Source of the DNA: Octopus vulgaris
Taxonomy: Eukaryota
Length of the DNA: 64,000 nucleotides
Direction: 5' to 3'
Assembly (NCBI GenBank): GCA_951406725.2
Contig: OX597814.1
Span: forward strand, 175,274,001 to 175,338,000
The first letter of the stretch is position 1, and every line of letters starts with the position of its first letter. The position numbers and the translations under genes are program-made. The notes under the pieces are model-generated. The model searched no databases. It had not been told where the DNA came from and was given only the letters and a program-made list of their open reading frames with translations. This document shows, one piece after another, positions 21,683 to 57,861 of this stretch.

Positions 21683-21740
21683 GGACAAGTGTTGTGCTGA
21701 TGATGTCTGTTGGGGCAGAAACACATGTCTACAACTGTCC
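21683..21740 (+). ncRNA. Type I hammerhead ribozyme (canonical core), antisense in BBS4 intron 10
   Basis: GGACA-agt-GTTGTG CTGATGA TGTCT-gttg-GGGCA GAAA C-acat-G TC|TACAAC-TGTCC; stems I, II and minimal III form; predicted GUC cleavage after 21729. Confidence 0.8.
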
Positions 21741-22159
21741 CCTTATTTCAAATTCCTTAGTGATATAGCAATTTTGGAAAATTTTAAATTCTTGAGATAA
21801 TCTCTCTTTCTCATATGAAACTAGTCTTAACTGCAATTTGGTAATTATGACACATCCTCTAGAAGCAGAGATAATTTTAATAAATCAAGAATTTATGTTG
21901 TATGGCATTTGATATATCTGGACTTGACTCTGTTGTTTATATCCATGCCACTGGCCATTCTGAGCTATTTCTCTTTGAGCATTTTGTTTAAGACACATAA
22001 CTCTGCTTGCTTTATTTTATTTAACTAACAACAAGATCTTGTCTCATTAAGCATTTAATTAGTTAGCAATAGTAAAGAGTAGTTAACTGTCAGAACAACT
22101 GCTTGAAAAATATCATTATTATCCACCTTAGCCAGATTAAAAATGAATTTTAAACAGTT

Positions 22160-48925: not shown

Positions 48926-49735
48926 GTGACGGTCATAACACAGACTTGGTCTGGGAGTTCGCTATCCTTGCTAGGGAGAGCGGAGGTTGCGCAGGTGTTT
49001 ATAGCATCTGTGATAACCTACCACCTAACCGTTGTGCCTTTCCCCGGTTTGTGGCCGAACAAGTTGGAACGGATCTTTTTCTGCTTTTTGTGGGAGGGGA
49101 AACCACCACTTGTGAGGCGCTCCATCTGCTGCCAGAAACCGCTAAAGGGTGGGTTAGGGATGCCTTGGCTGATGATGTGCATGTACGCGCTGAGGCTGAG
49201 ACACCTCTGGCTCTATCTGGATGGTGAACGGGTGTGGTCACCGCATATCAAGTTCTTCCTGTCACATTTGACGTCCCTGCGGGAGGTAGGAGCATGGTTC
49301 ACGTGGAGACCAAAAATGAGTGTATGGCAGAGGGAGTGCAGAAATGCACTCACTCTGTTCTCCCGGGCGAGCAATGCCGGCAGCGGGGTTTCCTACTGCG
49401 GATTTCTATAGCGGGTTGATAGAGCATATGTCCGACGACGCCCTGGGGGAGACTCTAGGCTTCGATGAGGAACAGCTTGTCAACCTGTTCGGAAAAACAT
49501 TCGGGGCGAGGTATCTGGACAACTTCCAGAAATCACTGGCCTGGTTGTGCTACCGATCACCCTTGCTAGTTCAAGAGAGGTTATCAAGGCATGGTGCCAG
49601 TATTCCGCCCACGTGCCCGAGGTGCGGGCATGTCAGGGAAACTGTCACGCACGCCTTTATACACCTGGTGTCAGATGCGGAAAGAGTACGGGTATCGATT
49701 GAGGCTATCATTAAGATTGTGCAACCTCCCATATA
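48926..49735 (+). mobile_element. L1/Tx1-clade LINE ORF2 3' fragment (pseudogene)
   Basis: LSLLGRAEV...KLERIFFCFLWEGK...GGLGMP and C-terminal CPRCGHVRETVTHAF zinc knuckle; frameshifted. Confidence 0.85.
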
Positions 49736-50261
49736 TAGCCTTCAATTCTTGGGGCAGGGGAAACAACAGAAAGTGTTGTCGTTCATATTTATTCATTTTA
49801 TCAAATAAACCACACACCTACGTACATATTTCATATACACATACAGACATTATTATTATAGATAGGGTGGTGGTTTGGCAGGATCGTTGCATTGTCAAAC
49901 AAAATGCTTCGCGGTATTTCATTTCTGCGGCGAGCTGGCAGAAACGTTAGCACGCCGGGCGAAATGCTTAGCGGTATTTCGTTTGCGTTACGTTGTGAGT
50001 TCAAATTCCGCCGAGGGCGACTTTGCCTTCTACCCTTTCGGGGTCGATAAATTAAGTACCAGTTACGCACTGGAGTCGATGTAATCGACTTAATACCTAT
50101 GACTGTCCTTGTTTGTCCCCTTTGTGTTTAGCCCCTTGTGGGTAATAAAGAAATAGGTATTTCATTTCTACGTTCTGGGTTCAAATCACAAGAGGTCGAT
50201 AAAATAAAATATGAGTCAAGTACTGAAGATCAATATAATCGATTAACCTCCCTAAGAAACC

Positions 50262-53684: not shown

Positions 53685-54880
53685 AGTTCATTGATGTAAC
53701 GGTTGAGACACGGTACAATTGACAAATGTTTCCCCGGCTGTTCCTTGATTCCAACCGGCGAAGTCAATACAAGCAGAGCTGTCTTGATGCATCGGCACAC
53801 TGAGCAGTTACTTGAGGACTACACAAACTCAGGCCCAACATTTATCTATGTATACTGTGATTTTTATATAGGGGTCCCTGTGCGTTGCCTTGCTCGGGAA
53901 GGAGGTCTATAATCCTGTTAAGACGGGCCTGCAACAAAGTTGTGAGAAGTAGCAGCAAAACAACAGCATCAGGAAAGGGATGCGCAACGGCCCAGTGGTT
54001 AGGGCAGCGGACTCGCGGTCGTAAGATGATACTGATGCTGCACATGCTGCCCATATTGCCCATATTCAGGGTGTTTTGAAGTATAGTGTTCACATCTCCA
54101 GAGTCGTAAAATTCCTGCCAGTTTGGGCGTTGTAGCTCGGAACAGCAAGAGTTCCACTCTGCTTTATTCCAGTCAAAGCGAGCAGTTTGGAGATGGCTGT
54201 GGTTTTTGTTACTGCCCATAAGGGACAGATTGGCAATGATCATAGTTGCCTAAAGGTTCCTCAGTAGCAACACTAATAACTGTTTTAGGAGTAGTGGTAA
54301 AGAGTAGATCCAAAGTTTTGTCACTCCTTGTTGGGCAGTCGACCACTTGGAACCAGTTCGAGTCCAGCACTAGCTCAATGAAATCATTGGCCCTTTGCGG
54401 CCAACGAAAGGTTTCCCAATCAATCTCAGAGTGATTGAAGTCAACTGCAATAAAAACATAAGTGGATGCTTTCCTGGCGGCACTTCTGAGGATATCACAA
54501 AGATGTGTGTCCTGATGGTTATTTGGGGGGCGGTAAACAACTCCAAGTAGAAAATTGGTTCAAATCAACGCAAGGAATTACTGAAAACTTTGAACGAACG
54601 CTGACCATCACACCACCACCACTACGATTATTGCGGCCTTTGCGAAACAAGTTGTAGCTAGCTATGCTGAAAACCGCATCACAGAGTAAGGAATGTACCC
54701 ATGTTTCCGAGCTTCCGGCGCGAATACCAAGCAATACATGTTGTTTCCAAATGTCTGGCCGCGTGAATTGCGCCAGGGTGCTGTTTTTCTCAAAGACGGT
54801 GCCCAACTGACCCTATTATACTGTGTAGTCGACAAGACCAAAACCAAACACAGCGCACGCGCGAAATCGGAAATATAAGA
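53400..54880 (-). mobile_element. Decayed CR1/L2/Jockey-type LINE, APE endonuclease region
   Basis: SETWVHS...SIASYNLFRKGRNNRSGGGV, DFNHSEIDW, QVVDCPTRSDKTLDLLFT, EPLGNYDH motifs across frameshifts. Confidence 0.75.
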
Positions 54881-55924: not shown

Positions 55925-56004
<80 letters not shown>

Positions 56005-56044
56005 TAAATGAAAGAATTGAGTCGAACGAAGATGTTAACAAAAT

Positions 56045-56140
56045 TCCTTTACTCTCGACACATGTTTCGAAGACGGCATACTTTTATTCTGAAGGAATAA
56101 AGGGTGCATTATGCAATCTTCTCATCAGGAAAGATAAGGA
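56045..56140 (-). ncRNA. Type I hammerhead ribozyme, inverted copy of 56501-56596
   Basis: Reverse complement of the plus-strand copy apart from one loop substitution; core intact. Confidence 0.82.
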
Positions 56141-56500
56141 ACCTCACTCAGCCACAAGACGAACAAAAAAATTTGATGATTGCCTACATGGTGACCACAG
56201 TGCTAATGAGTGTTTTTTTAAAAAAAATCCATTATACACACAGAGACACAAATGTAGTTATATACACACATTCATACACACACATAAACACTTGCACTCA
56301 TTAACACAAGCACACACCTGCACATCCCCATACGTACGGCATACATATTGTCCCCTACCTATTTTTACTACTTCCTCCTTCTACCCAATTTTGACGTCAA
56401 TGATTATAACGGATTTTAAAAAAAAAAACACTCATTATCACTGTGGTCACCATGTAGGCAATCATCAAAATTTTTTGTTCGTCTTGTGGCTGAGTGAGGC

Positions 56501-56596
56501 TCCTTATCTTTCCTGATGAGAAGATTGCATAATGCACCCTTTATTCCTTCGGAATAAAAGTATGCCGTCTTCGAAACATGTGTCGAGAGTAAAGGA
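56501..56596 (+). ncRNA. Type I hammerhead ribozyme with long stem II
   Basis: TCCTTATCTTTC CTGATGA GAAGAT-TGCATA...TTTATTC-cttcg-GAATAAA...TATGCC-GTCTTC GAAA CATGTG TC|GAGAGTAAAGGA; predicted cleavage after 56584. Confidence 0.82.
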
Positions 56597-56787
56597 ATTT
56601 TGTTAACATCTTCGTTCGACTCAATTCTTTCATTTATTCATATATATAAAAAACACACAAATTTCCACACAAGAACCCGGAGTTTCTACCCTTGACAGGT
56701 AGCTTCAACCGTGTTTTCTGACGGGAATTTGCTACCCAGGTATCGGTTAAACGAACTTCCCATGCTAGGATAATTCATTCACCTACT

Positions 56788-56818
<31 letters not shown>

Positions 56819-56935
56819 GGTTTGTATGATTGTGTATAGTGGGATATATATTATTCAAAGAAATTCCAAGTCTGTTTTGTATGTTTTATTTATATTCTTT
56901 ATAATATTAATGTAGAATATAGAATATATAGTATA

Positions 56936-56989
<54 letters not shown>

Positions 56990-56998
<9 letters not shown>

Positions 56999-57336
56999 TA
57001 AATGAAAGAATGGAGTTGAACGAAGATGTTAACAAAATTCCTTTACTCTCGACATATGTTTCGAATGAAAATATGCTGTCTTCGTTTTCCAAAGGAATGA
57101 AAACATGCTTTTCTTCGAAACATATGTCGAGAGTAAAGGAATTTTGTTAACATCTTCGTTCGACTCCATTCTTTCATTTATTCATATACAACACACAAAT
57201 TTCTGCACATGAACCCGGATTTTCTACCCTTGACAGGTCGCTTCAACCGTGTTTCTGACGTGAATTTGCTATCCAGGTGTCGGTTAAACGAATTTTCCAT
57301 GCTGACGATAAACATAGGATAATACATTCACCTACT

Positions 57337-57340
<4 letters not shown>
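56990..57340 (+). mobile_element. Second, shorter insertion of the same HHR family with inverted 5' arm
   Basis: 56990-57065 inverted vs 57114-57188; 57190-57335 similar to 56650-56788; truncated inside the HHR; flanked by (TA)n. Confidence 0.75.
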
Positions 57341-57408
<68 letters not shown>

Positions 57409-57741: not shown

Positions 57742-57861
57742 ATGCTTACAGCACCTAGGTTTCCCAAGCGGTCACCCATCTAAGTACTAACTAGGCTCGA
57801 TGTTGCTTAACTTCGGTGATCGGACGAGAACCGGTGCTTTCAACGTGATATGGCCGTAAGC
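57742..57861 (-). rRNA. 5S rRNA: 5S rRNA gene (solitary copy)
   Basis: GCTTACGGCCATATCACGTTGAAAGCACCGGTTCTCGTCCGATCACCGAAGTTAAGC...GATGGGTGACCGCTTGGGAAACCTAGGTGCTGTAAGCAT; about 120 nt; termini pair; followed by an oligo-T Pol III terminator. Confidence 0.96.

Follow-up and report, generated by a model that had tools for sequence, protein, structure and literature searches.

Which class of mobile element left two fold-back insertions side by side in (TA)n repeats of the octopus genome, and how could each of them have acquired an inverted copy of itself? The question was addressed in the whole stretch of 64,000 nt (hereafter the window), which has a GC content of 37.5%, the character of animal-type intergenic DNA and 103 tandem-repeat rows. 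Its interspersed repeats presumably resemble octopus SINEs, and a full-length 5S rRNA copy (57743-57861, minus strand, 113.8 bits) was located beside a SINE-like repeat, 340 nt to the right of the second element. LINE remnants were also recognised, namely zf-RVT at 49320-49805 (plus strand, E 9.8e-07) and Exo_endo_phos_2 at 54212-54559 (minus strand, E 7.3e-12), both unlinked to the elements.

Our reading is that both elements are probably (with a probability of about 0.8) independent, heavily 5′-truncated insertions of one many-copy Penelope-like retrotransposon (PLE) family. Their parts are the following.

55928-56001, no strand: (TA)n target tract on the left side of element 1, with one short interruption (tandem-repeat listing)
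55993-56236, minus strand: inverted arm of element 1, 244 nt, 5′-truncated and tail-less, with its inner end at TATA
56045-56140, minus strand: type I hammerhead motif, minus-strand copy (mirror of 56501-56596), CTGATGA from 56128, predicted cut after 56057
56237-56787, plus strand: forward copy of element 1, without ORF, including the former "spacer" 56237-56404 (contig depth and six-frame translation)
56501-56596, plus strand: type I hammerhead motif, predicted cut after 56584 (core search and folding)
56640-56648, plus strand: internal 3′ end site ATATATATA, where the inverted arm of element 1 begins
56649-56787, plus strand: tail of element 1, 139 nt, in the forward copy only
56788-56815, no strand: (TA)14 on the right side of element 1 (tandem-repeat listing)
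56924-56995, no strand: (TA)n tract on the left side of element 2 (tandem-repeat listing)
56991-57065, minus strand: inverted arm of element 2, 75 nt, ending at a TTCGAA palindrome, 15 nt past the predicted cut
57066-57111, no strand: inversion junction of element 2, made of short helix II pieces, with a direct duplication (57063-57077 versus 57095-57109)
57095-57338, plus strand: forward copy of element 2, with the 3′ half of the hammerhead only and the internal site ATATA at 57184-57188
57340-57404, no strand: (TA)32 on the right side of element 2 (tandem-repeat listing)

A sequence-only reading of this DNA had proposed two neighbouring, related non-coding insertions in (TA)n, and the arms, forward copies, tails and TA flanks bore this out. 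Both insertions (2/2) were flanked by (TA)n on either side, with the TA tracts of the two elements separated by 125 nt of AT-rich DNA (56816-56940), and target-site duplications were unreadable inside (TA)n. The elements were 84% identical over the 250 nt that they share, and each (2/2) consisted of a forward copy joined head to head, at its 5′ end, to a 5′-truncated inverted copy. The inverted arm of element 1 (55993-56236) was 96% complementary to 56405-56648, with 9 mismatches in 6 events per 244 nt, and its first 9 nt were common to the (TA)n tract. Similarly, the arm of element 2 (56991-57065) showed 1 mismatch per 75 nt against 57114-57188, with imperfect pairing on to 57080. All four arms crossed the predicted cleavage site, their 5′ ends were truncated at differing points, and the outer ends corresponded to element 3′ ends at two sites 140-150 nt apart. 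Specifically, the inverted arms of both elements opened at one internal site, ...TTCATTTATTCATATA, in agreement with the common inversion breakpoint that had been claimed, while the tail (139-143 nt in element 1 versus 150 nt in element 2) was confined to the forward copies. The arrangement previously described as inverted arm, spacer, forward copy and common 140-nt tail held in its layout, but neither in its separate 168-nt spacer, which is family sequence from ~56290 and therefore merely shows the forward copy reaching further 5′, nor in identical tails; that of element 2 carries a 12-nt insertion. The internal TA run expected at the breakpoint measured 9 nt in element 1 and only 5 nt in element 2, this site being the longest TA run of each forward copy. 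As the earlier reading had it, the second insertion was cut off inside the hammerhead, being devoid of CTGATGA and of the 5′ core. Within the 64-kb window, no further copies of the family were found besides elements 1 and 2.

The element 2 junction (57063-57111) was a patchwork whose terminal loop reads AAA, against TTT or TTC in the family contigs, which would fit a flipped hairpin piece; the reverse transcriptase may have stalled in the long stem and switched templates there. In addition, both tails (56684-56700 and 57222-57238) contained a stretch of pyrimidines and then CAG/G, splice-acceptor-like by sequence; some PLEs are reported to have a 5′ UTR intron.

Element 1 had also been credited with two intact hammerhead ribozymes. 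Both motifs were indeed complete and on opposite strands, although "intact" applies to the motif, and the Rfam models gave no hammerhead match at the gathering or E-value threshold. Weak Rfam matches to miRNAs reflected hairpins only and were discarded. The plus-strand core comprised CTGATGA (56513-56519), GAAA (56573-56576) and GTC (56582-56584), accompanied by a helix I of 5+5 bp, a 53-nt helix II domain (56520-56572) that contains two internal loops, and a helix III of 2 bp whose loop is self-complementary. The minus-strand copy differed by one loop base within the span, plus one flanking base. A descriptor search returned three matches in the window, two of them the element 1 motifs and the third an unrelated motif at 21697, whereas 100 first-order Markov random windows averaged 0.0 matches. 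The unrelated motif (21684-21741, plus strand, core CTGATGA at 21697) was a second type I hammerhead with a short helix II, a helix III with an ACAT loop and a helix I with an outer extension; around it, neither repeat structure nor a match to the 56-57 kb family was found.

When the plus-strand motif was folded alone, the predicted probabilities were 0.92 for helix I, 0.99 for helix II and 0.014 for helix III as a monomer, and helices I and II of the minus-strand motif reached 0.93 and 0.99. For a dimer, an 8-bp helix III duplex between two copies was predicted (-7.4 kcal/mol). Sequence context matters, since folding of the entire forward copy (56290-56790) lowered the predicted values to 0.0 for helix I and 0.14 for helix II. 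In a read-through transcript of element 1 from either strand, the antisense arm comes first, all three helices were predicted at 0.0 and the arms formed a 244-bp duplex of -435 or -476 kcal/mol depending on the strand. Because the ribozyme helices are lost in this modelled duplex, the palindrome likely silences the element 1 ribozymes in the read-through transcript.

Public sequencing runs contained further copies of the family. Part of 56405-56790 was found in 20 of the 24 listed runs (9 studies, 4 organism labels), and half of its words in one run only. No run recorded as RNA was listed as carrying it, the RNA status of run X12 being a guess, and metagenome contigs and viral contigs gave 0 matches to the family. 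The contigs of four runs were then aligned to 56237-56787 at 80% identity, with 56237-56288 skipped as repeat, and all four (4/4) yielded aligned contigs (2588, 2158, 1113 and 171). Compared with element 1, the contigs of run X1 (n=2588) comprised 354 with an identity of at least 99%, 770 of 95-99%, 974 of 90-95% and 490 below 90%. The family is many-copy and, given this wide spread of identities, diverse. Contig cover started at ~56290, with zero depth left of ~56275-56290, and the summed depth upstream was 10-50 times below that of hammerhead and tail; summed contig depth was not taken as copy number, and the ratio of hammerhead to tail depth was ~0.6-1.7 among the three larger runs.

The catalytic core was free of variants among the 40 of 104 variant positions listed. 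Two common changes, with pairing judged by hand, were 56525 T>C, which turns a U-G pair into C-G and keeps helix II, and 56580 G>A (61-68% of depth), which perfects the helix III palindrome. Both arms of element 1 shared two bases seldom met elsewhere in the family, T at 56495 and A at 56623 (the other base makes up ~98% and ~99% of X1 depth, respectively), indicating that the arms came from one source. The internal site also occurred in a form 6 nt shorter (56645/56646 missing), at ~10-36% of depth. Among the 24 of 372 loose-end entries listed, ends behind 56648 that run into TA repeats were carried by at least 26 X1 and at least 4 X12 contigs. The X12 consensus behind 56648 continued into a GT repeat and was flank-like, and the X1 consensus resembled a longer internal TA run; the recurrence of the internal site as a 3′ end in other copies was thereby partially supported. 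One X1 contig joined 56428 to 56692 on opposite strands and, with its orientation not given, was weighed neither for nor against the shared breakpoint. Loose ends were also seen behind 56755 (at least 12 X1 contigs) and behind 56766 (at least 7 X2 contigs); these tail-end variants in 56755-56787, at least two besides that of element 1, point to several subfamilies. Finally, at least 2 contigs of run X3, among the 24 of 372 loose-end entries listed, showed a direct junction of (TA)n with the central part of the tail, so not every copy has the fold-back form. Together with the loss of the helices in the predicted read-through transcript, these contigs speak against the earlier generalisation that every insertion forms a self-cleaving hairpin.

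The anatomy of the elements makes it likely that they belong with the PLEs. The layout is already described for EN+ PLEs and is unusual only in the 140-150-nt tail and the long helix II; its shared breakpoint is the tail-less pLTR end known from the literature. Craig et al. 2021 (PMC8557442) reported PLEs with an inverted 5′-truncated copy, a one-sided 30-40-bp tail and a (TA)n bias, and listed Penelope-13_HM with a (TA)n target, an inversion and hammerheads on both strands. The (TA)n-targeting EN+ PLEs of that paper (Hydra clade, Neptune and Naiad) resemble the present elements in their (TA)n target, in the 5′-truncated inverted copy at the 5′ side and in carrying type I hammerheads close to their ends, on both strands. 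They differ in that no ORF was seen in the present elements and in that Naiads are described as being without canonical hammerheads. The present hammerhead was unlike every row of File S2 of PMC8557442, including Hydra-1_Obim. The pLTR of the octopus Naiad ("HHR_half_core") and that of Hydra-1_Obim were rejected as candidates, their consensus sequences, in the published portion compared by motif search and eye, giving no match.

Penelope/Poseidon elements (Pen2a of Adineta vaga, PMC3846280; PAc of Anolis, PMC11167929) are alike in combining a tail-less inverted pLTR with a tailed direct pLTR, and further in their palindromic inversion junction, AT-rich target and uncleaved template. Their tails, however, measure 31 nt (Pen2a) and 30-40 nt (PAc), whereas those found here, at 139-150 nt, are about four times the reported length; moreover, the inner start of the present elements matches TA over a short stretch, and no ORF start was found in their repeat. 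According to Cervera and de la Pena 2014 (PMC4209133), metazoan PLEs carry minimal type I hammerheads in opposite-strand pairs 100-700 bp apart. Our motif shares with them a short palindromic helix III that needs a dimer and a longer-than-usual helix II, and departs from them in its 53-nt helix II domain with two internal loops and in the outer 5-bp extension of helix I. This domain far exceeds that of most PLE hammerheads listed in the published material cited, a similar insert being listed for the plant PLE-X1_sMoe.

Six-frame translation revealed neither RT nor GIY-YIG in the 550-nt copy, although truncated copies are not expected to carry one, and Pfam models found none in 100 of the 131 complexity-filtered window ORFs of at least 75 aa (163 before filtering). 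According to the O. vulgaris repeat paper, 190 PLE families make up 6.83% of the assembly, and the present family may already be catalogued among these. A published account of it, or of a 140-nt tail, was not found in the literature searched, which left out most subscription papers.

The arms of element 1 diverged by 2.5% (counted as events) to 3.7% (counted as bases). If the octopus calibration quoted in PMC13282606 (JC 0.09 = 25 My) applies, element 1 would be ~3-5 My old (interval 1-10), a figure that RT error or arm homogenisation could shift. The description of the elements as young is only loosely true, with arms that differ by this much and 354 of the 2588 X1 contigs at least 99% alike to element 1.

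As regards the origin of the palindromes, Frangieh 2024 (PMC11167929) reported that, in vitro, a Poseidon PLE from Anolis cleaves AT-rich DNA on both strands and extends each of them, and that it starts reverse transcription at two internal sites bounding the tail, on uncleaved RNA, ribozyme cleavage being dispensable. By analogy, a GIY-YIG endonuclease/RT protein would nick both strands of the self-complementary (TA)n, and uncleaved element RNA would be reverse-transcribed from each free 3′ end as primer. One start would lie at the tail end and the other ~140-150 nt upstream at a short TA motif, 56640-56648 being the likely inner RT start site. Both cDNAs would stop early and be joined head to head via short matches, provided by TATA in element 1 and by pieces of helix II in element 2. 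The hammerhead would then be an ordinary pLTR ribozyme acting, if at all, as a dimer or protein-aided in the source tandem transcript. We infer the two-ended priming step from the biochemistry of another PLE clade. Self-priming on an antisense template, which Arkhipova et al. (PMC3846280) proposed for head-to-head palindromes, may instead have produced those described here, and Craig 2021 (PMC8557442) and Frangieh 2024 (PMC11167929) treat the formation of PLE inverted repeats and tails as still open.

What places the inner start is a question on its own. A second target end could anneal to the internal TA run, in the style of twin priming, and the sequence match would then fix the breakpoint. 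Both arms begin at the longest TA run of each forward copy (9 nt and 5 nt) and the inner junction of element 1 also lies on TATA, as such annealing would predict, but the run is only 5 nt in element 2, the form 6 nt shorter is common (~10-36% of depth) and the tail end offers a TA match of at most ~2 nt. L1 twin priming on one template is not known to duplicate forward sequence in the inverted arm, unlike the arms found here, which duplicate the forward copy. Furthermore, the RT start of the Anolis PLE is described as not homologous to the cut DNA (PMC11167929). TA pairing and a fixed RT start site are indistinguishable from two insertions; pairing is plausible, although we doubt that it is what sets the breakpoint. 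A different possibility, which we regard as rather unlikely, is that the copies represent a short non-autonomous family (~500-550 nt, a solo pLTR or SINE-like) that never had an ORF of its own and depends for its movement on a PLE protein acting in trans. The 550 nt contain no ORF and depth drops to zero left of ~56275-56290, Arkhipova et al. (PMC3846280) described cis-acting pLTRs moved in trans, and a 2026 preprint (bioRxiv 10.64898/2026.07.22.740005) derives animal retrozymes from pLTRs. However, 56237-56288 was skipped as repeat, so the depth edge need not be the left limit, and a depth 10-50 times lower upstream is what 5′ truncation, or an upstream region specific to certain subfamilies, would produce; moreover, PLE 3′ UTRs reach several hundred bases (Naiad_Ovul, supplement of PMC8557442).

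A non-LTR retrozyme spreading via self-cleaved circular RNA is improbable in our view. Non-LTR retrozymes (Cervera and de la Pena 2020, PMC7229834; Li et al. 2026 preprint) are like the present family in being non-coding, with a type I hammerhead and many copies, and in being likely PLE-related, and the family was present in a run guessed to be RNA (X12). Nevertheless, retrozymes form head-to-tail tandems of 150-450 bp units (PMC7229834) that yield circular RNA, whereas the present copies are head to head with variable 5′ truncation, with no unit tandem in the window and no end at the cleavage site. From the earlier proposal of a PLE- or retrozyme-type family that targets TA repeats, the PLE origin and the (TA)n targeting fit well and the retrozyme half was dropped. 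As palindromes flanked by long (TA)n assemble poorly, and the contigs, aligned to 56237-56787, included no locus-spanning read, we also considered an assembly or amplification fold-back artefact and, alongside it, a MITE with terminal inverted repeats. We give either explanation hardly any weight: the arms differ at 9/244 and 1/75 positions, two different elements have the same outer end, the tail is on one side only and the arm lengths (244 versus 75) are unlike those of terminal inverted repeats.

Under the preferred reading, that of truncated PLE insertions, the locus beyond its use as a test of inverted-repeat and tail formation is an ordinary footprint of a known retrotransposon class. 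In a family that combines many copies with a long tail and an inner TA motif, a genome-wide count could separate starts set by the protein from starts set by pairing with the target. We tentatively put forward, as a proposal with the odds against it, that this is an uncatalogued PLE family in which two (TA)n ends prime at starts 140-150 nt apart, with the inner one chosen by TA base-pairing. If this were true, every one of thousands of insertions would preserve a trace of how inversions and tails arise in PLEs; the Anolis element, by contrast, uses non-homologous starts separated by 30-40 nt. In the same case, a 53-nt helix II would escape standard descriptors (core spacer 7-17 nt), and some PLEs regarded as "ribozyme-less" may carry hammerheads.
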